A DNA stretch of 64,000 nucleotides, taken from NCBI GenBank assembly GCA_041740975.1, contig JBGSKV010000088.1:33734-97733 (forward strand), given 5' to 3'. The DNA comes from Oligoflexales bacterium (GTDB taxonomy: Bacteria > Bdellovibrionota_B > Oligoflexia > Oligoflexales > JALZUQ01). This document shows, piece after piece, positions 28,063-62,420 of the stretch. How positions within the stretch are numbered: position 1 is the stretch's first letter; each line of letters opens with the position of its first letter. The position numbers and the translations under genes were made by a program. The notes beneath the pieces are model-generated. The model worked only from the letters and a program-made list of their open reading frames with translations. It was not told the origin of the DNA and ran no database searches.

Positions 28063-30462
28063 TCAGCGACACACCACATCACCAAAGTCAAAATAATATT
28101 CAATTTTCGCAACCACCGGAAGTTTGATTTCGCATTTCAAGTCTTGATCATGGATTCGCGCGACTTCACCCGACTTTAACTCGGCCTGAAAAGCGCCGTC
28201 GTCTTCTACGTAAAAAATCCCAGATTCCGTCACGACTTTGCGATTTCTGATAAGATTGCCTCGCGCATCTTTTAACCTACCAAGTGCAATAAAAATCTTT
28301 GAAATTCTAAATTTTGCAAAATGCACATGACCAGGAAAAAGCGTCACCGTCTCATCATGTCCATCGTAAGACACTAACGAAGATTTTGATGCAGGAGCAA
28401 CCCTTACATTATGGGCTTGATATGGCGCTAACAAGAACGCGACTGATCCCGTGCCTTTGACAGACTTCGTTCCCTGGCCATCAATAAAAATAATTGTCTC
28501 AGCTTTTTCATCGAAATTTTCAAGCTGCACGACGAGAGTACTTTCGCCAAGATCCGAAGGTCCGGTTGCAAACTCACCCTTGTTATTGATGATTAGTGAC
28601 GTCCCCAAACTCAACCTTCGGCCCGAAGTGGTCGTGAATGGCGTCTTATAAATACTTGTTCCAATTCCAAAGTCACCCCACCGTGTGCCATATTCGTATT
28701 CGCCAAAAAATCCATCGGAATAATTCTCGCTATCTGACCAGTCCAGCTGATGATTGACCGCAATTCGGCTGCCTAGTCCAGATCGCGAATGCATGTCTTG
28801 ATAAGAAAGGCCATTGCGAACGGATGTTTTTTGTTCGAAGTCGCCAAAACGTTCGACGGCCGAGTTGGTCAATGAGAAAGGGCCCCGCCTCGTCTGCCAA
28901 CTGAGGCCAATAAAATAGACTTCGTCTTTTATATCTTTTTGCACTCCCACTTCCGCATAGAGAGTGTCCTGACTATTCTCAATCAAACTGACTCGAGACC
29001 AAAGGGCATTCATTTTCTGAATGTTTTTTTGTTCTTCCTTAACCGTTATGTGCTGATACCGAACGTCAAACCAATCAAAACTCTTGGAAGCGACGAGGGA
29101 CAGTCGTTCGCGATTCACCAGTTTCGTATCACGCATAAAGGGCAATGGCTCTGTCGGATCAACCACTGTGTCGATGGGATACACTCGTTCTTGTTCAGTG
29201 GAGATAAGATTGGACCTTTCAAAATCAGCACTCAAATTCAAGCCTAGAAAGGTGCCGGAGAGACCTATGTTTAGACCCAATGAGCTGCTCTCACCCCAAG
29301 AGGTAGAGGCAAGAAGTAGTGTCTCTCGGTAAAAACCCGTAAACCCAAAAATATAAGTTTGGTCGTGCTGGTTTCCATAACTCGCAAACGTAAGGTCAGA
29401 CACTTCATTCAAGCGCGTTCGGTACTGCAGTTGATAGTGATACTTGTCTTCGATTTTGTAGTGCGTTCGATTTCTTCCGATATCCAAACTGAGCTGAGGA
29501 TTGCCACGAGGGACTAAATATCCAGACTTTGCATAGTATACGCGCTTCGTGCCATCAAGCCCGCCTACCCCCTCTATCACAACATCGACAAAGTAACTGC
29601 CTTGCGGAAATCGACTTGTGTCCACTTCCTGCTTACCTTGCGAAAGAATTTGTGAGTCGATCAACTGACCTTCTTTGAAAAAATTTACACGTGAACGAAT
29701 GGGCACATAAAGCTCAAAGCGGCTACCACGCATGTCATTTGAGTCAGAAAGTAGTAATTGTTCTGTTGCAATGGAAAAGCCAAGAATTTTTTGAGAGGGT
29801 GCTAGTAGTGCCGACGATGTTTCTAAATACCCGACAGATGAAACAATATCCTTTCGAACATAATTTAATTTAGCAAAATCAAGCTCTCGATAGACCTCGT
29901 CCTGGCTATGTTGCTGAGACTCTCTGTATAACAACGAAAAGTCACCGATGCCATAAGACGAGCTCAGATTGTAACTGTAAACTTCCTCCCCTAAAGCATC
30001 TTGTGAAATAATGATCCGGGGCGAAATCTTGAATGCACCGACGTGATTCGATTGAACAATGTAGCTCGTGACGGAAGTGGATTTATTCTTAAAGAATTTT
30101 TCATTCAATAAAACACGCACTTGAAAGCTATTCACATCGATTTGCAGACTTCCCACATTTGGCAAAGTCCGTTCTTTGGCAATCACTCCACTAAAGAGTG
30201 GTATCAGTTCAGGTACCATTTGTGCGAAATCTACCTGTAAGAGTGAGACCACTTCATTGGGGTCCTCAAACTGGAGATCGCCTTGACTACTGTACTTAGC
30301 AGTCGCGATACCTTTATTATTTTCACCTAGATAAATATCGAAAGCGGTAAACTCATTCAGCTCCTGGGCTGAGACGTTAGTATACCCAGACAAGACGCCC
30401 GTACTACTCAGTAAACTTGCGAGTACCAGTCGGCTGATCGATTGTGAAAAAATCCTTATCAC
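28063..30462 (-). CDS. Fimbrial outer-membrane usher (TcfC/EcpC/CS1-like)
   Basis: 799 aa beta-rich; V...K.GQLIDSQ.L..G.Q.VDTS.FP.GSY.V; C-terminal GRL.D..G...D.G.F and Cys pair; follows the chaperone. Confidence 0.85.
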   Translation of the reverse strand: MIRIFSQSISRLVLASLLSSTGVLSGYTNVSAQELNEFTAFDIYLGENNKGIATAKYSSQGDLQFEDPNEVVSLLQVDFAQMVPELIPLFSGVIAKERTLPNVGSLQIDVNSFQVRVLLNEKFFKNKSTSVTSYIVQSNHVGAFKISPRIIISQDALGEEVYSYNLSSSYGIGDFSLLYRESQQHSQDEVYRELDFAKLNYVRKDIVSSVGYLETSSALLAPSQKILGFSIATEQLLLSDSNDMRGSRFELYVPIRSRVNFFKEGQLIDSQILSQGKQEVDTSRFPQGSYFVDVVIEGVGGLDGTKRVYYAKSGYLVPRGNPQLSLDIGRNRTHYKIEDKYHYQLQYRTRLNEVSDLTFASYGNQHDQTYIFGFTGFYRETLLLASTSWGESSSLGLNIGLSGTFLGLNLSADFERSNLISTEQERVYPIDTVVDPTEPLPFMRDTKLVNRERLSLVASKSFDWFDVRYQHITVKEEQKNIQKMNALWSRVSLIENSQDTLYAEVGVQKDIKDEVYFIGLSWQTRRGPFSLTNSAVERFGDFEQKTSVRNGLSYQDMHSRSGLGSRIAVNHQLDWSDSENYSDGFFGEYEYGTRWGDFGIGTSIYKTPFTTTSGRRLSLGTSLIINNKGEFATGPSDLGESTLVVQLENFDEKAETIIFIDGQGTKSVKGTGSVAFLLAPYQAHNVRVAPASKSSLVSYDGHDETVTLFPGHVHFAKFRISKIFIALGRLKDARGNLIRNRKVVTESGIFYVEDDGAFQAELKSGEVARIHDQDLKCEIKLPVVAKIEYYFDFGDVVCR

Positions 30463-31150
30463 CGTTGAACGTATCCCTTTGTATTTTGATCGCGCCTTTT
30501 CCTGCAGGTGCCTTGAAGTTCTTGCCAGCGTAAATTCGCCCGCCTATCTTGGATTTCTCGCAGGTTGCATCTTTGACATCACATGCGGTCAAAACAAGGT
30601 TGACGTTGCCCGTATTCCTGATGATGTAATCACTTCCCACCTTAGACCAACTGATTTCCTGTTTCGTTCCGAATGGTGGAGCGAAGACCAGGATTCCGGA
30701 GCCCAGTAGTACTGTTAGGTTAATGGATTTTTTACCATCTTCCACTTTTTGGTTTGCTGAACCTCCGGTACTGGAAGTGGGCCGGAAAATAACTCTGTAA
30801 ACCTCTTCCGTATGTATCACTTTGCTCTTAAGCAGGAGCCGAACAACTCGTTTTTCCTTTGGCTTCATCACAAACTTTTTGGGAGAAACGATGACACTTG
30901 AGTTCTTGTCCAACTTTTCTGGTTTGTCGCCGGGATTGAGGACTTTCACAGATTCGGTTTCGACTTCCACTGTCCTATCTGTATAGATGTTTTGAACTTG
31001 AACATTTAGCACAGGCGCCGCACCAGCCTCGAATCGATAGAAAAAATCATCCGGCATGACTTGAGCGTAGGAGATGTTGGCCTGCATCCAAAGTCCCCAG
31101 AAAATAAATATAGAAATCATCAGCTTTAGAAGACTATGCAAAGTCATCAC
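30404..31150 (-). CDS. Periplasmic pilus chaperone
   Basis: Signal peptide; IVSPKKF.MKP.EKRVVRL, EEVYRVIF.P, IRNTGNV. Confidence 0.88.
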   Translation of the reverse strand: MMTLHSLLKLMISIFIFWGLWMQANISYAQVMPDDFFYRFEAGAAPVLNVQVQNIYTDRTVEVETESVKVLNPGDKPEKLDKNSSVIVSPKKFVMKPKEKRVVRLLLKSKVIHTEEVYRVIFRPTSSTGGSANQKVEDGKKSINLTVLLGSGILVFAPPFGTKQEISWSKVGSDYIIRNTGNVNLVLTACDVKDATCEKSKIGGRIYAGKNFKAPAGKGAIKIQRDTFNGDKDFFTIDQPTGTRKFTE

Positions 31151-33613: not shown

Positions 33614-33769
33614 AGCCTTTCCTCAAGAATTTTTTTATAGTAATTAAAATAGGAACTTGCACAGATTTTTCAACCCTAGCTCGCTATACTTTATTGAGTT
33701 TTTAACCATCCTTACTCTTTGACCAATCGATTTCGCGACCTAAATATCCAAAAATAGTAAGATTTTCGT

Positions 33770-36801: not shown

Positions 36802-38898
36802 TCAAGGAGGAGCTGCACACCTACCATGCGAATTGCAATAACTACTACAGCAGTTCCTCCAAGTTGAGCACTCTCGGCCGTTTCTCATTTCGACTGGGCA
36901 TGCCGGCTGCAAATCAATACATTTTCCAGCTGAACATGAAAGTCCTGAGCAACAATTTCCTTCAGCTGCTGTTCCGCAACTTTGGTTGACCGTTTTGCAA
37001 GTCGCTCCACAAACTCCGTTCTGACAAAGACCTCGACAACATTGAGCGCTCGACGTGCAGGAAAGACTGTCCGCTCGGCAGATCAATGGCAAATCTTGGC
37101 TTCGGCAAGTTTTGACTCCGTTCATTAGGAAATCCGTGCAATTAAACCCAGCGCAACACTCGGAGGCTGTTGTGCAAGTTGCGCCGCTTCCTCTACATTG
37201 TGGCGCATGATTAGCAGAACAAACCTTCGTACCAATGGTCGTAGAAAACTGACATGTGCCATTGCAACACTCAGAACTGAGAGTACACATCTGCAACTCG
37301 CTTTTGCATGCTGGAGCAGGATTCGCACACTGACCATTCAAACAAGTTCCACTACAACACTGAGAACCTGCTGTGCAGCTAGTGCTGTTTGATTGGCAGA
37401 CTTGTTTGGGCAGACACTTGTAACGATCTATTATATTGGGAGAGGTATTTCCAGGTTCGAGTTTGCACTCATTGTTTGTAGTATCACAACATGGAAAAGA
37501 GTTGCTGCAGTTTTGATTTATACTTGCACAAGTCGGTGTGGGCATAGGTGGATTGGTGGGAGTCGGGTTTTGCGGGCCGACACAGATTTGATTACCTATA
37601 GAACCTTGGCATGAATGATTAGCGTTGCAGCAATAAACCTGAGCAGTAGCACCTGGATCATTTAACCATAGTGGAATACTTCCACATTTCTGGCCACCGG
37701 AAGCACACTGAGGAATTTTGCAATGTTTTGAACTAGGGTCGCAGGCACCCGAACCAACACACCCACACTCCAAAGCAGGATTGCAGCAGTCGGCATTAGT
37801 TGCGCATAGTTCACTGTACTCGGAACACTGTGGCTCAGGATCTTGTGGTGGATTATCTTCTATCGTCTCGAACACCGCACTTACCGTTTTATTGTCAGTC
37901 ATGGTCACGAGGCAGACGCCGCTGGTAAGTGCTTCGTCATTATTCGAGCATCCCCTTAGTGACGACAATTCATATCCATCGCTAGCTTTGACATTTAATA
38001 CAATAGTATCGAACTTGTCGTATGCCTCTGTGCAGTCCGGATTGCAATTAATCCCATATCCCGAAACATTTCCTTCGCCAAAAATTCTAACGCTTAGGAG
38101 GTGTTTCGAATCCGGAGATGGCGAATGACTGCTTGACGGGTTTTCTTCACAGTTTGTAATTTTTGGCAAAAAGCCAGCCTTACCAATCCTGCATGCGTTG
38201 CTGTCTCCAGGAATGAATACTCCTGGCCTGGTAAGATTAACATCAATTATGTAACTATATAGTTGGCCGCCACATCCCGTTACGGTGAATTTGTTTACTA
38301 CATGGTTACACATAAACTCGAAACCAGAGGTAGGATTCCCATCAGCTTGCGCCATGAGTTCAGTGTAAGCAAGATTAAAAAGGCTCGCGTGCTCTTCGCA
38401 ATCGCCCTTTTGACGTAGCGTATCCTCATTGGAGGCAATTATAATCTTTGTTGCAGTGTGAACGCATTTTGCCAGCAAAATTGGGTCTTTGATATCCTTG
38501 CAACTCGCTTTGACAAAATTGACGTAAGGCATGACATCTTTATCGCAACCTCTAGTACAATTTTCCCTGCTGCAACCTATTAAGGAGCAAGCTGCGACCA
38601 AAAAGGTTGTTCCTGTTGTCGCTTTGCTTTCTATGAAAGCTTTCCACTCTTCGTATGTGAATGTTGAAGGGACACATCCACTTTGGCTACTTGGCCCTTC
38701 TGGCCCTTCAGGACCATCTAGTCCTTTCTCATAAATCGCACGGGGATCAATTATCACAGTATAATCAAAGTTTCTTTTCGCATTGTTTTTTAACTTCTCA
38801 TTAAACTTTGCGTAGACGTCATTTGAATCAATGCTTTTTACTTCTTTAGTGCATGCGCAAAGATAAACAAAAGATAAAAATATAAAAAACATTTTCAT
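36802..38898 (-). CDS. Cys-rich lipoprotein: transglutaminase-like domain, InlB-B-like repeat and nine knottin-like repeats
   Basis: LCAC lipobox; GDCEEHA...NHVVN...YIID; G.G.V...INC..DC...C.VTM...KTVSAVF; nine C-x6(-9)-C-xn-CC-xn-C-xn-C units. Confidence 0.75.
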   Translation of the reverse strand: MKMFFIFLSFVYLCACTKEVKSIDSNDVYAKFNEKLKNNAKRNFDYTVIIDPRAIYEKGLDGPEGPEGPSSQSGCVPSTFTYEEWKAFIESKATTGTTFLVAACSLIGCSRENCTRGCDKDVMPYVNFVKASCKDIKDPILLAKCVHTATKIIIASNEDTLRQKGDCEEHASLFNLAYTELMAQADGNPTSGFEFMCNHVVNKFTVTGCGGQLYSYIIDVNLTRPGVFIPGDSNACRIGKAGFLPKITNCEENPSSSHSPSPDSKHLLSVRIFGEGNVSGYGINCNPDCTEAYDKFDTIVLNVKASDGYELSSLRGCSNNDEALTSGVCLVTMTDNKTVSAVFETIEDNPPQDPEPQCSEYSELCATNADCCNPALECGCVGSGACDPSSKHCKIPQCASGGQKCGSIPLWLNDPGATAQVYCCNANHSCQGSIGNQICVGPQNPTPTNPPMPTPTCASINQNCSNSFPCCDTTNNECKLEPGNTSPNIIDRYKCLPKQVCQSNSTSCTAGSQCCSGTCLNGQCANPAPACKSELQMCTLSSECCNGTCQFSTTIGTKVCSANHAPQCRGSGATCTTASECCAGFNCTDFLMNGVKTCRSQDLPLICRADSLSCTSSAQCCRGLCQNGVCGATCKTVNQSCGTAAEGNCCSGLSCSAGKCIDLQPACPVEMRNGRECSTWRNCCSSYCNSHGRCAAPP

Positions 38899-40730: not shown

Positions 40731-41829
40731 AGGCAATATCGCTTGGTTATGAGAAAGACAAACTGCATGCAGGAGGTGCAACATTTATTCAGCGATTTGG
40801 TTCATCTTTAAATCTGAATGTCCATTTTCATATGCTATTTATTGAAGGTGTTTACCTTGATAGAAGTAATCAAAACCTTAAACCAAAATTTATTCCCACC
40901 CCTCCGCCCACAGATGATCAAATACTTCTAGTTGTGGCTAGAATTTCAAAACGCATCATAAAACTTCTTCGAAAAGAAGGGTATTTAGATAAAAGTACCA
41001 TTGAAGCTATTCGTACTAGTCATGATCCATTATTTAGTGAAGAACCAGAACATTCGCGAAGTATGAGTGCCTCGATAAAACATATGATTGCATTTGGGCC
41101 TAGAGCTGGTCAGAAGGTGCGAACCCTTAAAATAGCCAGATCATTTGGCGAAGATGGCTAAAAAGCAAAACTTATTAAAGAGCGCTGTGCAGCGATTAAC
41201 GGCTTTAGTTTGCATGCTGATGTAAGAATTAAAGCTAAAAAGCGTGACAAGTTAGAAAAACTTGTGCGTTATACTGCGAGGGGAGCTTTTTCACATAAGC
41301 GTTTATCTCAGGATAAAAATGGTGATTTGCTTTACGAACTTAAAACTCCGTGGAGTGATGGGACCACCCATATAAAACTCAGTCCTATGGAACTAATTGA
41401 AAAGCTTTGTGCTTTGATTCCACTACCGAACTATAATTTGTTTCGTTACTGCGGAGTGCTTGCTCCCAACTCAAAGCTCAGAAGACATATCGTTCCCAAT
41501 CCAAAAGCAGGGGAGGTGCAAGCAACCTCAGAAAGTGGCGATTCAACCCCACCAGCTACGAGATATTCGTCGGGTCACGCGAGCCGGCGAGCGGGAGGAA
41601 AAACTTTTGAAGAGGTCATTCGGCCTTGATTTGAGCAGATCGGGTCACGCGAGCTGGCGAGCGGGAGGATTCTTGCTATTCAGAAAACTTCAAAGCCGTT
41701 GCGATGATTGAAGATCCCGATATCGTGCAAAAGATCCTTCTGGCTGTTGGTTTGGAAGCAAGAGCCCCACCCATTGCGCCTGCCAGAACCGCGCAAGAGC
41801 TAGAATACACCAACTACTTTGATGAGTGA
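40731..41829 (+). pseudogene. IS91/ISCR-family (Y2 HUH) transposase pseudogene
   Basis: QRFGSSLNLNVHFH (HUH), GFSLHA, RYTAR, LKTPWSDGT, RYCGVLAPN, IEDP...KIL...RAPP.APAR; 5' truncated, in-frame TAA at 41159-41161, two frameshifting insertions. Confidence 0.9.
41570..41669 (+). repeat. Two copies of a 30-bp GC-rich sequence
   Basis: TCGGGTCACGCGAGCYGGCGAGCGGGAGGA at 41570-41599 and 41640-41669, one mismatch. Confidence 0.92.
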
Positions 41830-41986: not shown

Positions 41987-42043
41987 TTTGGGTTTTGTGA
42001 GCCCAAAGCATCGATAAAAAAGGGCTTTATAATTCCTATCCGC
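41987..42043 (+). mobile_element. oriIS-like end of an IS91-family element
   Basis: Hairpin TTTGGGTT...AGCCCAAA, then GGGCTTTATAATTCCTATCCGC, resembling the TTCCTAT core of IS91/ISCR oriIS; about 200 bp downstream of the transposase. Confidence 0.7.
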
Positions 42044-42262
42044 TTTACAACAAAGCTCAAAAACGACTCATGGAATACGAGGGTGTATCCAATGTTGTCG
42101 ACGACGATAGCAAGAAACAAACCGTTACCATTCGTTACACATACTAGTTCAGAGTTTCAAATATCGAGAAGCCAAGGTATCAATCTTGGCTTCCCAAACT
42201 TCTTTCTCACCTTCGCTTAAGAATGAAGAGCGAAAAGAGTTTTTTGCAATTGTCGCCATGTC
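42044..42262 (+). repeat. Direct repeat copy B, 219 bp
   Basis: See copy A; holds an orphan 3' end of the 35540 gene and the true 3' end of add. Confidence 0.95.
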
Positions 42263-43822: not shown

Positions 43823-44332
43823 GTGAAGTTCTTTGTCACTCTCACTCTTTTCAGTTTTGTCTTAACTGGTTGCGCAGGTATGTTCACTCCAGCAGTTCCC
43901 CTTTCACAAGCCGAAGTTAAGCGTTTAACGACTTGTGACAATGCCGATTTGAAAACAATCCGCAAAAACCTTCTTCTCGCTGGTTATGTTGTGACCAAAA
44001 CTACGGACGATGATCTTGTCACTGACTTCAAACAAGTCGGCGCCGGCTCATACAATAAAAAATGGGTTCGGGTTACTGCAGTTAAAGTTGACGACAAAAC
44101 TATCCGTTTCAAAACTCGTGAGAAGCTAGTTTCTACTGAACGGGTTGCAGATGAAACTGAAGAAAGCTCATACACAGGCTCACGTTATGCTAGCAAAGGC
44201 CGTCACAAGGGCCCGACAAAGCAAACGACAACTTACCGCAATCAAACAGTTCAAAACGAAACAGATTCTCTATACACGGATCGCACACGTCAAATGCACG
44301 AAACTCTTCACGCTGAAATTTGTAATCAGTAG
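43823..44332 (+). CDS. Hypothetical lipoprotein
   Basis: AGGAGG RBS, LTGC lipobox. Confidence 0.7.
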   Translation: MKFFVTLTLFSFVLTGCAGMFTPAVPLSQAEVKRLTTCDNADLKTIRKNLLLAGYVVTKTTDDDLVTDFKQVGAGSYNKKWVRVTAVKVDDKTIRFKTREKLVSTERVADETEESSYTGSRYASKGRHKGPTKQTTTYRNQTVQNETDSLYTDRTRQMHETLHAEICNQ

Positions 44333-44339
44333 TGGCTAC

Positions 44340-44400
44340 ACACTCGCGAAGCGAGTGAGGATTAGTTTATTAAGCTCCGCCCTCACCGGCGGAGTTTTTA
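44340..44400 (+). repeat. Two-hairpin intergenic repeat (solo copy); the second hairpin is terminator-like
   Basis: CACTCGC-GAA-GCGAGTG, spacer, CTCCGCC-CTCACC-GGCGGAG-TTTTT; homologous to 60763-60830. Confidence 0.8.
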
Positions 44401-45447
44401 TTTTGGCCAAAAAACGCTGGAGCATTTCAAAAACATTAGCTCGTCAGCTCCTAAAGCCGGCAGGACATGAGATTCGGACGCCAGCAAACGTATCATCTGC
44501 ATACCTCGCCATAGATTCTCATATTTATTTCCATTTTCGTTTATATTGCCATGAATCAGCCGGGCTACTTCAAAAGTTGCGACAGTGTCGAAATAAATAG
44601 TGTCAACACTCAGTCGGCCTACTCCCAAAAGTAAACTATTGAATTCCTCGGTTGGCAGAGACTGAACAAACTTCTTACTATCTGCAAACACTTTGACTGC
44701 GCCACCTTTTTCCATAGCATCAGCCAAGTCACCCTCATCCAAAAAAAGTAAGCTTCCCTTGGCGTCCACCCCAATCGGCAAAACCACAGACACAACAGAC
44801 TGATCTGTGTCGGGAACAAAGTAAGTCAGATCTGCAGGTTTTTGGAAGGCCCGAAAAATTTGATTTCTCAGTGCCAAGTCTGGCAGGGTGCTTGCACTAA
44901 ATTCGACTAGCCGCTCGCTAGGCACTCGATTCGATAACCTGGCAAAGCTAAGAATCATTGATCCTTCGACGATATACCCTTCAATCAAGTTTGTCTGAAT
45001 CTCAGCTCCTAAGGTTAAAACGCCAACATGCCCCGGAATCTTCGCAATATCCACCGGCTGACGGCGAACTCTTAGATTCAGCTCTATAACTTTTCCAACT
45101 TGCATGCGTTCATGATCATGCTGAAAGACCAAACCTGTTGCGATCACATCAAAAAACTCCCGCTGAAAACTCAATGCAGGCAAATCGATTGTACGCATTG
45201 CAGAGGAGGTCGGAGACAAATTGTATGCAAATGTATTTCCCATATGCGGAAGCTTTTCCCGACCGTGTGGATTCATAAGTGTGAGGGTTCCAGACACCGA
45301 ATCCAATAAGACTTCTGAATGACTTCCTATCAATGTAAGTGTCGTTTTCACTTTTACATGCGGAACATCAAGAGGAGCCGCCAAGGCAAATTGACCATTT
45401 AAAATCAAAGGTCCCAGTAAAACTAAAATTTGTCGGATTATTCGCAT
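44398..45447 (-). CDS. Hypothetical secreted protein
   Basis: 349-aa ORF with signal peptide; no recognised motif. Confidence 0.6.
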   Translation of the reverse strand: MRIIRQILVLLGPLILNGQFALAAPLDVPHVKVKTTLTLIGSHSEVLLDSVSGTLTLMNPHGREKLPHMGNTFAYNLSPTSSAMRTIDLPALSFQREFFDVIATGLVFQHDHERMQVGKVIELNLRVRRQPVDIAKIPGHVGVLTLGAEIQTNLIEGYIVEGSMILSFARLSNRVPSERLVEFSASTLPDLALRNQIFRAFQKPADLTYFVPDTDQSVVSVVLPIGVDAKGSLLFLDEGDLADAMEKGGAVKVFADSKKFVQSLPTEEFNSLLLGVGRLSVDTIYFDTVATFEVARLIHGNINENGNKYENLWRGMQMIRLLASESHVLPALGADELMFLKCSSVFWPK

Positions 45448-59575: not shown

Positions 59576-60754
59576 ATGAAACCAGTTTATATTATTTCGC
59601 CTTATCGCTCAGCCGTAGCCAAAGCTTTCCGCGGAAGTTTTGCTAACAAACGTCCGGATGATTTGTGCGCTGATGTCATCAAAGGCGTCATGGCCAAAAC
59701 CCCGACGCTTGACCCAGCTCTTATCGAAGATGTCGTGATTGGCTGCGCTATGCCCGAAGCGGAACAAGGCATGAATATCGCACGATTCGCTTTGCTCTTG
59801 GCAGGTTTACCGGATTCGGTACCTGGTATGACCATCAATCGCTTTTGTTCTTCTGGCCTACAATCCATCGCCATTGCTTATCAACAAATCGCCGCCGGCC
59901 AAGCCGAATGCGTTTTGGCAGGTGGAACCGAATCCATGACCATGATTCCGATGATGGGTCATGAAGTGGTGGGAAGCCGCGAAGTAATGACTGAACATCC
60001 TGAGTTTTATTTGAGTATGGGCCTTACTGCCGAAAATGTGGCGAAAGATTATAAGGTCAGCCGCGAAGACCAAGATCGTTTTTCATTTGAATCCCATCAG
60101 AAAGCCGTCCAAGCGATCGAAAAAGGTTTATTTAAAAACGAAATTATTCCCGTTGAATTCGAACATCGCAGTCTTGGAAAAAACGCAGAGGCCGTTGTCA
60201 AAAGAGGCATTCTAATGCAAGACGAAGGTCCGCGTGTGGATACGACTTTGGAAGCGCTCGCCAAATTGCGAGCCGTGTTTTTGACAGGTGGTACGGTCAC
60301 TGCAGGCAACAGTTCTCAAATGTCGGACGGTGCGGCAGCCTGTATTGTGGCTTCCGAAAGTTTCGTCAAAAAACATAACTTGAAACCAATGGCCCGCATG
60401 TGCGGATTTAGTGTGGCCGGCGTACCTCCGCGTATCATGGGCATTGGCCCGATTGAAGCGATTCCGAAAGCGCTAAAATTGGCCGGCATCACCATGAAAC
60501 AAATTGAACGCATTGAACTCAACGAAGCTTTCGCCGCGCAAGCATTGGCCGTCACACGCGAACTCAAACTCGATCCCAAAATGATCAATCCAACCGGCGG
60601 CGCCATCGCCCTCGGACATCCTCTTGGAGCAACGGGAGCCAAACTTGCCGCGACGTTGATTCACGGTATGCACCGCGACAACCAAAAGTACGGTATCGTC
60701 TCTATGTGTATCGGAACGGGTATGGGTGCTGCCGGGGTGTTTGAAAAAGTATAG
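59576..60754 (+). CDS. fadA: Acetyl-CoA C-acyltransferase (thiolase)
   Basis: NRFCSSG, ELNEAFA, GGAIALGHPLGATG, MCIGTGMG. Confidence 0.95.
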   Translation: MKPVYIISPYRSAVAKAFRGSFANKRPDDLCADVIKGVMAKTPTLDPALIEDVVIGCAMPEAEQGMNIARFALLLAGLPDSVPGMTINRFCSSGLQSIAIAYQQIAAGQAECVLAGGTESMTMIPMMGHEVVGSREVMTEHPEFYLSMGLTAENVAKDYKVSREDQDRFSFESHQKAVQAIEKGLFKNEIIPVEFEHRSLGKNAEAVVKRGILMQDEGPRVDTTLEALAKLRAVFLTGGTVTAGNSSQMSDGAAACIVASESFVKKHNLKPMARMCGFSVAGVPPRIMGIGPIEAIPKALKLAGITMKQIERIELNEAFAAQALAVTRELKLDPKMINPTGGAIALGHPLGATGAKLAATLIHGMHRDNQKYGIVSMCIGTGMGAAGVFEKV

Positions 60755-60759
60755 TTTAT

Positions 60760-61308
60760 TGAACACTCGCTGCGCGAGTGAGGGTTGTTTTACATTAGCT
60801 CCGCCCTTCACAGGCGGAGCTTTTGTTTTTTACGAAGTGGTGGTGGAAACTTCTCATCACTGTCTCCAGAGGGTACGCTTGCCAGAATAGCCACTGGGAT
60901 TTTTATTTGGGCCAGAGCTCCTGCCCAGGCTGCGCTGGTGTTCGCGCGTCCTGCGCTCACAACCCCCTCTGGGGACAGTGCTGAGAATTTTCTACCACCA
61001 CTTCGTAAAAGCCAAAATCTCCAACAGTGAGGCTCCGCCAAACTGGGTCCCTCAATCGAGCAACCGTTGCGGATGCAACTCGTGCGAGCACGCACTCGTG
61101 TGCGAAGCCTCACCGTCGCAGTTTTTACCCGATGGTTGACTGGGACGGTTGAGCCGGCTTAGATTTGGCTGGGCATTGAGGCTGCATCAGCCGACACCGC
61201 CCAGATAAATCTTAGCCGGGAGAACCGGGCCAATCAAACATAGAAATGAAAACTGTGAGAGTGAAAGGCGGAGCAAATTTAGATGTCCGGCCGCGGAGCG
61301 GCCGTTCA
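60760..61308. repeat. 549-bp nested palindromic intergenic element (REPIN/MITE-like or structured RNA)
   Basis: Inverted homologous arms starting TGAAC plus hairpin; 46-bp inner inverted repeat (60828-60873 / 60965-61010, 4 mismatches); 143-nt rod at 61116-61258. Confidence 0.8.
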
Positions 61309-61322
61309 TTAATCTATGGATT

Positions 61323-62219
61323 TTATTCGCTAAGACAAGCTTTGACTTTGACAGATTCGCCGGGAATCACTCGCGCATAAATCATGCGTGAACACTTTCC
61401 ACTGTTAACAGATACTTTATAGAGTTCGGGAAAGGTAACCATTAATGCAATCGAACAGGAAGTTGCCCCTTTGCATGCACCCGATGGTGGTGGCGCGGCA
61501 ATCGGATCGCCGTCGATGGAAACTCTCTTGACTGGTTCAGCTTTGCAAGTACCTTCATCCAACACATCAAGGCCATTGGCTTTGACTTCAGCAAATACGC
61601 AGTCGATGTGAGACTGACGAGCTTCTGCCCGGCGAGGTTTGACTTCATCTTTTGGAAAATCAATATCTACCAAAACTTCTTCAGAATCTTGCGCGCTCAC
61701 CCGCTGCATCTTAAGAACTAAATGGCCCACAGACGATTGAAATACATCCGACTGGGCTTTAAAAATGAGGCCCCGACTATTTAAAATAAGAACTCGAATT
61801 TCGTATTTATAACTCGGGTCTAAATTACCAAGCTTAGCTAGAGCGCCATTTGTACAAGTGTATGGAAAAGAAACCGTTTCAGTTTTAATGGAACCATCGC
61901 CACTTTGCTCGCGGAGCATCACAATAATGCGAGAACCAAATTCTTTGCGATCACCTTCACGGCAAATCAAACTTATTTTACTATTATTATTAAGGGCTAG
62001 GTTACTGGGAACTTCAATACTTTTACCGTCTAGTTGATCATGGCCTTCCGGTAGTTTTAATCCAAATTCAAACTGTCCAGCCCCGATATTTTGAACATTC
62101 ACAGCTTCGTCGGTAGATGTCGTTGAGGAGCGAGTATCTAGCGTCGTGTCTGAACCGTCAGAACAGGCCAACATGATCCCCGCTAAAACGATTGTTGAGT
62201 AGATAAGGTAACGACGCAT
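61323..62219 (-). CDS. Hypothetical lipoprotein
   Basis: MRRYL...MLAC lipobox (ATG 62219); TCAAG-N16-CCGAAA upstream at 62268-62294. Confidence 0.7.
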   Translation of the reverse strand: MRRYLIYSTIVLAGIMLACSDGSDTTLDTRSSTTSTDEAVNVQNIGAGQFEFGLKLPEGHDQLDGKSIEVPSNLALNNNSKISLICREGDRKEFGSRIIVMLREQSGDGSIKTETVSFPYTCTNGALAKLGNLDPSYKYEIRVLILNSRGLIFKAQSDVFQSSVGHLVLKMQRVSAQDSEEVLVDIDFPKDEVKPRRAEARQSHIDCVFAEVKANGLDVLDEGTCKAEPVKRVSIDGDPIAAPPPSGACKGATSCSIALMVTFPELYKVSVNSGKCSRMIYARVIPGESVKVKACLSE

Positions 62220-62420
62220 AAGAACTCCCACGACTTTGTTCTCATTAAGAACCGAATATAAGACTGCTTTCGGTCCGAGCAGGCGCCTGCTTGACGAAGG
62301 CTTTTTTTTCATTTAATTTCAAATAGTTATACGAATTTCAAGGGCGTTCGCCAAAGTCTAAGCGCAGGGAATGATTGGCGCAATCAGCAGAAATGATAGT
62401 GTGTGGACTATAGGAGTCTT

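Follow-up and report, generated by a model that had tools for sequence, protein, structure and literature searches.

A modular family of palindromic repeats at convergent gene junctions in the draft genome of an Oligoflexales bacterium

Results

A many-copy family of non-coding palindromic repeats

The 64,000-nucleotide stretch analyzed here (the window; positions 33,734 to 97,733 of contig JBGSKV010000088.1 in assembly GCA_041740975.1 of an Oligoflexales bacterium) contains a nested palindrome that fills the gap between a thiolase gene and an open reading frame (ORF) converging on it. This palindromic element of 569 bp (window positions 60750-61318) is one full-length copy of a repeat family. 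The family probably represents a genome-specific set of non-coding, modular palindromic repeats, similar to miniature inverted-repeat transposable elements (MITEs) and to REPINs (repetitive extragenic palindromic (REP) doublets forming hairpins), which were spread in trans and are kept as two-way terminators.

First, the copy number was determined in the draft genome to which the window belongs (3.16 Mb, 130 contigs, 86.8% complete, 45.5% G+C). A 568-nt query gave 97 BLAST matches, which were merged to 95 loci, and profiles of five modules gave 262 module matches in 92 loci. These 92 loci add up to 28,986 bp (0.92% of the genome). Fifty-five of them touch a contig end, 55 of 260 contig ends lie inside the repeat, and the family accounts for about one fifth of the contig breaks of the assembly. 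Exact matches to two 24-mers from the cores of the element number 37 and 42. A preliminary description of this DNA had suspected a mobile element family, and the 92-95 loci bear out that the element is present in many copies.

Second, the ends of the copies were compared. Ten aligned full copies share a terminal motif with sharp boundaries (TATAG..TGAAC), and their terminal inverted repeats of 14-15 nt have the consensus TATAG-WT-WWW-TGAAC. Directly inside lies a subterminal hairpin (hp1), and 58 ends carry the terminal motif together with a perfect hairpin. Genome-wide, the stem forms ACTCGC-N3-GCGAGT and GGCCGC-N3-GCGGCC were found 20 and 75 times, respectively, and 18 and 32 sites of these forms adjoin TGAAC; variants such as GGTCGC/GCGACC occur among the aligned copies. 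A second hairpin (hp2) is represented by 38 intact copies in the genome.

Third, the coding capacity was inspected. The copies are 324-590 nt long and non-coding. The longest ORF in each of the 10 full copies comprises 69-159 amino acids and varies in place and strand. Thus, no ORF is conserved, in agreement with the earlier view that the element holds no credible one.

Organization of the window copy

The features of the window copy and its surroundings are given by window position and strand.

59576-60754, plus: thiolase gene (acetyl-CoA C-acyltransferase match, 587.7 bits), preceded by a FadB-like gene
60750-60764, plus: left terminal inverted repeat TATAGTTTATTGAAC, from the alignment of 10 full copies
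60764-60780, plus: subterminal hairpin hp1 in the ACTCGC form (CACTCGC-TGC-GCGAGTG)
60797-60831, plus: hairpin hp2 (AGCTCCGCC-CTTCACA-GGCGGAGCT, then TTTGTTTTTT), resembling an intrinsic terminator and facing the thiolase gene
60828-60873, plus: left arm of the long hairpin of module A (inverted-repeat search; covariation over 21 copies)
60874-60964, plus: asymmetric 91-nt core of module A, which holds GGTGTTCGCGCGTCCTGCGCTCAC (37 exact occurrences in the genome)
60965-61010, plus: right arm of the long hairpin of module A, which departs from the left arm at 4 positions (2 G-T compatible)
61014-61126, plus: module B, a hairpin with arms 61014-61038 and 61102-61126; the left arm contains GCTCCGCC (61032-61039)
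61127-61274, plus: module C, a long hairpin ending in GGCGGAGC (61267-61274), which closes B and C against 61032-61039
61289-61303, minus: subterminal hairpin hp1' in the GGCCGC form
61304-61318, minus: right terminal inverted repeat (minus strand CATAGATTAATGAAC), ending 4 nt before the stop codon of the converging ORF
61323-62312, minus: converging ORF of 329 amino acids without a known family (stop codon 61323-61325)
44340-44404, plus: solo end module (hp1 and hp2; 65 nt, 81% identity)

The element had been described as 549 bp long. The nested palindrome was indeed present; its true ends lie 10 nt further out on each side, because the outer TATAGWTWWW is conserved in other copies. The thiolase gene ends with a TAG stop codon (60752-60754) that is part of the TATAG of the left terminal inverted repeat. 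The position between convergent genes, with the thiolase gene on the plus and the 329-amino-acid ORF on the minus strand, was as described earlier, and so was TGAAC followed by an inward hairpin at both ends. The end hairpins read ACTCGC-TGC-GCGAGT on the left (60765-60779) and GGCCGC-GGA-GCGGCC on the right (61289-61303), and their stems differ at three positions, each of which is compensated. The hairpins had been classified as GNA-type. Read inward, the loops of 52 hp1 hairpins follow T-N-C (TCC 17, TGC 15, TTC 13, GAA 3 and four single others), and GNA applies only to the opposite strand.

Further inside, GCTCCGCC-YTTCAC is present on both sides (60798-60811 on the plus and 61274-61261 on the minus strand). 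On the left it is directly followed by GGCGGAGC at 60813-60820 and then by a T-run; on the minus strand, GGCGGAGC follows after about 220 nt, at 61039-61032. The inner arms of module A had been reported as 46 nt long with 4 mismatches, two of them G-T compatible, around a 91-nt core, which was exactly what was found; in the repeat search these arms extend to 66 nt at 85% complementarity. The fold energy of the window copy corresponds to z-scores of -13.7 (plus strand) and -13.9 (minus strand), and 0 of 100 shuffled sequences were as stable. A solo arm had also been noted at 44340. The sequence there is related, and it is a 65-nt copy of the two end hairpins that lacks the outer TATAG..TGAAC repeat and directly follows the stop codon of an ORF at 43823-44332.

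Modules are exchanged within a common pair of ends

The order of the window copy, T-A-B-C-T with T for the end module, is complete at 8 of the 37 loci that lie away from contig ends. Other loci lack module A or carry long hairpins termed X, X' and Y in place of A or C. In some copies module B is inverted relative to its neighbors (e.g., A+ B- C+ on contig C59; C- B+ A- on contigs C90 and C105). A copy on contig C35 has non-matching arms from two subfamilies and looks like a recombinant chimera.

The simplest complete form with a core (C24:52244-52567) is a near-perfect palindrome of 324 nt with a fold energy z-score of -28.7. It has the order T-A-T and comprises end repeat, hp1, spacer, hp2 with T-run, arm and 91-nt core, followed by the mirror image. 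Since this basic form is mirror-symmetric and contains hp2 with its T-run, a hairpin resembling an intrinsic terminator faces inward from each side, and one terminator-like site was found on each strand. Compared with the basic form, the window copy has the T-A-T order plus a nested insert of modules B and C at its right-hand hp2, between GCTCCGCC (61032-61039) and GGCGGAGC (61267-61274).

The ends would be the functional part of the element, as they enclose other cargo as well, namely a 47-nt mini palindrome and units of 1.2-2.4 kb with HNH genes. It was considered that a host palindrome of 30 nt at gene ends might be a mere insertion target; with one intact mini palindrome (C117:70957-71003), this was not favored.

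Several further short sequences were observed. A GC-rich motif of approximately GAGCGAGCCGGAYGCGAGCG or its complement recurs in similar form at the apex of modules A, X' and Y (e.g., window 60935-60960, C75:8400-8545 and C42:33270-33480), and the hairpin tips may thus hold a common recognition site. Copies of the repeat (e.g., module A on C35 and C70) and pseudogenes of Y2 transposases (e.g., C23:1370-1400; C83) contain a micro-insert, CTCCCTCGCCGGCTCGGCAGACACG, which is 25-28 nt long and has 18 matches at up to 3 changes; it therefore looks like a separate kind of inserted DNA. In many cases, another short repeat, GTCATYCWGAGCGAAGCGAAGRATCT (39 matches), adjoins the end hairpin on its inner side and replaces the usual spacer; examples are C2:6800-6850 and C2:8170-8200 and sites next to hp1 on C17, C42, C59, C92 and C118.

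Pairing is conserved and does not favor one strand

Among the modules, C is the best conserved, with a median pairwise identity of 94% (43 copies), followed by B (85%), A (82%) and the end module (79%). The 42-bp stem of module A was analyzed over 21 copies. Of all cells, 95.7% were paired, and 28 of the 42 pairs were altered on both sides; these values were reached by 0 of 500 shuffles. When the partners were slid by 1-3 columns as a control, 37-49% of the cells were paired. Beside this stem, which varies in pairs, the 91-nt core is invariant.

These properties could be those of functional structured RNAs or of cis-acting structures in 3' untranslated regions, with the DNA repeats as their gene copies. 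The strong covariation, the invariant apical cores beside variable stems, the very stable folds and a promoter-like site in module C (TTGACT-18-TAGATT at 61136-61165) are in line with this explanation. However, covariation does not single out RNA, because it is equally expected of a DNA palindrome. Moreover, both strands fold equally well, and the modules occur in both relative orientations. Mismatches of the G-U type and of the A-C type were compared on strand-neutral pairs, i.e., pairs shared by the predictions from both strands. The counts were 12 versus 8 for module A, 29 versus 11 for module B, 66 versus 86 for module C and 4 versus 5 for the end module T, and they thus give no consistent sign of one functional strand. 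An initial excess of G-U mismatches (68 versus 10 in module A) had pointed to a functional plus strand. This was rejected since the excess vanished on strand-neutral pairs; it was artefactual because RNAalifold had chosen the pairs.

In Rfam, no family reached its gathering threshold for the window copy. The best scores were 20.8 bits (threshold 55) and 20.5 bits (threshold 49.5), and the weak matches all lay on the hp2 terminator hairpin. For other copies, the best scores were 39.4 bits (threshold 80) and 26.8 bits (threshold 49.5), with generic hairpins or terminators. The alternative raised earlier of a large structured RNA thus found no known RNA family at threshold, and an RNA function of the repeats is considered very unlikely.

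Copies are located at convergent gene junctions

The placement of the copies was evaluated with gene calls taken from stop-to-stop ORFs of at least 150 amino acids. Of the 29 junctions that carry a copy, 23 are convergent and the other 6 tandem, and no divergent junction is among them; the background of 2226 junctions comprises 399 convergent and 428 divergent ones. Binomial tests gave p values of 1e-12 (convergent excess) and 0.002 (absence of divergent sites). A second count of 24 internal loci of at least 250 nt gave 18 convergent, 6 tandem and 0 divergent sites.

At 12 of these 18 convergent sites, neither end is more than 25 nt away from its stop codon. Stop codons built of bases of the end repeat were found for the thiolase gene in the window and at the left end of the copies on C110, C35 and C92 and the right end of those on C17 and C70. 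The leftover spacer was at most 30 nt in 11 of 16 copies, compared with 41% of the copy-free convergent junctions (p 0.025). The tight fit at the stop codons is therefore just weakly unusual, because short convergent spacers are common in this genome.

In the window, the terminator-like site of hp2 (60797-60831) follows the thiolase stop codon after 43 nt and consists of a GC-rich hairpin and a T-run. From such pattern matches and from the placement, the basic form probably works as a two-way terminator cassette.

Candidate enzymes of the HUH and DDE types

A REPIN-like origin of the element had been proposed earlier, with mobilization by HUH enzymes. TGAAC plus hairpin would then be a REP-like nick site for a REP-associated tyrosine transposase (RAYT) or an enzyme of the IS200 or IS91 type, and the element would be an oversized REPIN. 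The conserved 5-nt head beside a GC hairpin with a covarying stem, the inverted ends without a visible target duplication and the compensatory stem changes, as given for REPINs in PMC3116915, agree with this. The genome also has suitable genes, namely three RAYT-like Y1_Tnp genes (57.5, 55.9 and 45.8 bits), one of which scored 63 bits against a model of the REP-associated tyrosine transposase (cut-off 80), and Y2 genes.

However, each Y1 gene is bracketed by its own distinct inverted REP, and doublets of these REPs about 100 nt apart are found elsewhere in the genome. The REPs bracketing the Y1 genes bear no resemblance to TGAAC-hp1, and no hp1 or hp2 motif was found within about 1.5 kb of the Y1 genes. 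The link that defines a REPIN-RAYT system thus fails, because each Y1 gene carries different REPs. Furthermore, conservation of the palindromic family extends symmetrically 9-10 nt outside TGAAC, which is more in line with a double-stranded inverted repeat than with a nick site. Accordingly, the HUH/RAYT analogy was not borne out, and HUH-type mobilization appears quite unlikely.

The Y1 genes and their REPs were observed as separate systems. The brackets lie at C92:29923-29955 and 30599-30632, at C102:29303-29327 and about 29955-29980, and at C55:139-165 and 825-851. The C55-type REP (ACAAATTAGTTATGTGTCCCTGAATT) is scattered over the genome in about 20 inverted doublets, with a distance of about 100 nt within each. 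Three classical-looking REPIN/RAYT systems therefore coexist with the palindromic family.

IS91-type Y2 genes are represented by one open frame running off contig C6 and four fragments. One degraded fragment is located in the window (40778-41629), with the end of its element near 42030-42050; the others are on C17, C23 and C83. The element end GGGCTTTATAATTCCTATCCGC, obtained by comparison of the window copy with C23, is unrelated to the ends of the palindromic family; it may resemble the origin end of IS91/ISCR elements. IS91 targets GAAC. A link to the TGAAC of the family through this target was rejected since the ends of the resident element are unrelated. An IS200/IS605-derived palindrome was likewise rejected: the ends are symmetric, no TnpB match was obtained, and the Y1 genes belong to the RAYT type and have REPs of their own. 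A likeness to integron attC sites (RYYYAAC/GTTRRRY) was also dismissed, as no integron integrase was found in the 86.8%-complete assembly (best TIGR02249 score 43.7 bits, cut-off 265) and the copies are dispersed and form no arrays. Other inverted pairs of the end motif (e.g., C1:344/5833) were chance matches with ordinary genes inside.

Alternatively, the repeats might be ordinary MITEs of a DDE transposase, e.g., a TA-duplicating enzyme of the IS630 type, whose master copy was lost or is located in the 13% of the genome that is missing from the assembly. The terminal inverted repeats of 14-15 nt start with TATAG, comparable to the TA termini listed for Correia, RUP and ERIC in Table 1 of PMC2229807. 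The flanks of 12 complete copies were inspected by eye, and TA was present on both sides in 3 of them. A multicopy master could be missing because repeats break the assembly. Apart from this possibly palindromic TA, however, no repeat was seen in the flanks, and the element is 3-5 times longer than the bacterial MITEs tabulated in PMC2229807. In addition, a profile search of the 86.8%-complete assembly, which breaks at repeats, gave 0 matches each for DDE_3, DDE_Tnp_1, TnpB, IS110 and Transposase_31. One rve gene was found, in an IS3-type unit whose TGA... ends differ from those of the palindromic family. A DDE transposase as the mover is thus judged somewhat unlikely.

In summary of these comparisons, the family shares with MITEs the terminal inverted repeats, the small size, the lack of coding sequence and the high copy number, and no insertion sequence that encodes a transposase between the same ends was found. 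With REPINs it shares the inverted TGAAC-hp1 doublet and a unit that folds end to end, at a spacing of 300-560 nt instead of tens of nucleotides, and no RAYT gene flanked by the same REP was found.

HNH genes are found between the same ends

A comparison of the genome with itself revealed a 1.2-kb repeat encoding a protein of 310 amino acids with a C-terminal HNH motif. Its Pfam HNH score (19.1 bits) is below the cut-off of 21.4. Clusters of look-alike proteins, most of them from Bdellovibrionota, carry HNH and in some cases DUF222. These genes might be autonomous partners of the repeats. Their nuclease would cut the end repeat or hairpin, or close by, and the gene-less copies would be reduced derivatives.

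Three loci bear on this possibility. The 1.4-kb repeat at C114:42781-44183 has a 16-nt inverted repeat (ATAGTTAAATGAACAG, 94% complementary) that matches the end motif of the family, and it encodes an intact 310-amino-acid ORF with the HNH motif. The copy at C3:9073-10250 is a deletion derivative; its left side has the end motif, and the match on its right side is degenerate. An HNH paralog of 25% identity (C2:6884-7843) lies in a 2.4-kb unit whose ends consist of the end repeat and the GGCCGC hairpin. Like gene-less copies, the C3 and C2 units are located between converging genes, at -3 to 17 nt from the stop codons; the 47-nt mini palindrome on C117 is convergent as well, and together the three lie -3 to 27 nt from the stops. 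Of 95 genomes of the order, 43 have several copies of the HNH gene family, which is therefore selfish in some way.

On the other hand, 6 of the 9 HNH copies in the genome lack such ends, and the C114 and C3 units share with the gene-less copies the outer 14-16 nt only and not the hairpins. At five HNH loci of relatives, no comparable bounding repeats were found. To our knowledge, no HNH protein acts as a transposase. The HNH gene may also have landed in, or been trapped by, pre-existing shells. Thus, the search for a nuclease or transposase gene between the same ends, which had been suggested earlier, yielded HNH nuclease genes at 3 loci and no transposase, and an HNH partner of the palindromic family is regarded as unlikely.

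Further palindromes were observed around the HNH genes. In the relative G040, other small palindromes border the HNH element, together with an inverted copy of a part of its own gene: a 94-nt piece of the HNH coding region is repeated upstream in inverted orientation (C232 of that genome, 884-977 and 2036-2129; 79% complementary), and small GC palindromes are found near both ends. In the genome of the window, the palindrome CTGCACCGGTGCAG occurs 3-4 times in or around each HNH copy, and its 12 exact sites are all in HNH units; in the extract of the C114 locus it lies at 1471-1488, 1682-1699, 1785-1801 and 2683-2699. The shorter C3 copy is explained by a deletion between two CTGCACCGGTGCAG palindromes.

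Distribution and comparison with known repeat families

The element was found in 0 of 60 relatives and in 0 of 130 other genomes of the phylum. The pattern TGAAC plus GGCCGC-N3-GCGGCC occurs 42 times in the genome of the window, and none of the 94 other genomes of the order had more than 4 sites of the TGAAC-hp1 pattern, each of them with one mismatch and in numbers like those of the control. Neither of the two core 24-mers had a match in species-representative genomes; one 24-mer matched a single metagenome contig, by chance within a high-GC gene. Viral contigs and plasmids gave no match. In the literature searched (full texts, not including supplementary files), no description of such a family was found.

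REPINs are about 70-110 nt long with a short spacer and are defined by a cognate RAYT, and compensatory changes in their stems have been described (Bertels and Rainey 2011, PMC3116915). Measured against that account, the palindromic family is alike in its inverted pair of GC hairpins with a conserved head, the unit-long hairpin, the compensatory stem changes, and the extragenic, many-copy and non-coding nature. It differs in its length of 324-590 nt, its nested hairpin modules, its conserved asymmetric cores, the conserved outer 9-10 nt beyond the head and the lack of a RAYT flanked by the same REP.

MITEs of the Correia, RUP and ERIC type measure 100-200 bp, and their TA duplication was demonstrated from filled and empty sites; for Correia, internal insertion/deletion variants of 107 bp and 155 bp are known (PMC2229807). 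Correia/NEMIS of Neisseria, RUP and ERIC resemble the palindromic family in their terminal inverted repeats starting with TA, predicted stem-loop transcripts, intergenic location, non-autonomous character and internal insertion/deletion variants. Unlike them, the palindromic family is 3-5 times longer, swaps modules as cassettes and is placed at convergent junctions on stop codons, with no duplication seen.

A third comparison concerns mosaic repeats. BIMEs of enterobacteria and BOX elements of pneumococci are mosaics of a few modules with fixed order and variable presence; they are located at the 3' ends of genes, and roles at transcript ends have been proposed for them. Mosaic structure, 3'-end location and proposed transcript-end role are shared with the palindromic family, whereas BIME and BOX have no common pair of terminal inverted repeats and do not form one nested palindrome. 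The palindromic family is thus a lineage-restricted, undescribed family of the MITE/REPIN kind that corresponds in full to neither definition.

Apart from the repeat, an ORF of 698 amino acids was observed in the window at 36802-38898 (minus strand). It has an N-terminal signal-like segment, and its C-terminal half is extremely cysteine-rich, with repeated units of the C-x-C-C type.

Discussion

The palindromic repeats described here probably form a non-coding, modular family that is specific to this genome, was spread in trans and persists as two-way terminators. The earlier proposal of an undescribed non-autonomous family stands insofar as the repeats are numerous, non-coding and structure-conserving, have sharp inverted ends and were found neither in Rfam nor in relatives; its specifics concerning HUH enzymes do not. 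In the proposed mechanism, a protein would recognize the 14-15-nt end together with the adjacent hairpin hp1, which is conserved in shape and not in sequence, and would spread the repeats in trans without an evident target duplication. Copies would persist at convergent junctions, where they may end transcription from both sides and leave promoters undisturbed. The mosaic of modules would have arisen later from recombination, inversion and nested insertion among copies.

Several observations weigh against this reading. An empty site was sought in relatives, but none was obtained; in the relative G002, the region that follows the thiolase gene is not syntenic. Insertion and the exact ends are therefore putative, as is any target duplication. 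Recent movement is not supported, since near-identical pairs of copies are few outside module C and the median identities by module are 79-94%. Because the family was found in one genome only, comparison with relatives gives no sign of gain or loss. No transposase or HUH gene with the ends of the family was found in the 86.8%-complete assembly. The placement statistics are based on crude gene calls, and the two-way terminator role is drawn from pattern matches and placement. In the window copy itself, the right-hand terminator hairpin is split by modules B and C.

A more far-reaching possibility is that the ends mark a new class of mobile elements. A DUF222-like HNH nuclease would then be the mover; it would recognize the end repeat and hairpin, perhaps in extruded or single-stranded DNA, home to convergent stop junctions and leave a two-way terminator there. 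This scenario is considered distinctly improbable. If it were true, the multicopy HNH genes of the bacterial order would move likewise.

Bacteria commonly harbor small palindromic repeats, and for most of them both the mover and the benefit are obscure. The family described here offers a clean natural case. It is unusually large and orderly, with fixed hairpin cassettes in one pair of ends, invariant cores, stems that vary in pairs and a placement exact enough for its ends to provide, in many cases, the stop codons of the two flanking genes. It poses the questions of whether such elements survive through transcription termination and which enzyme spreads them. With the failure of the RAYT test and the recurrence of HNH genes within the same ends, it points to a testable, unconventional partner.

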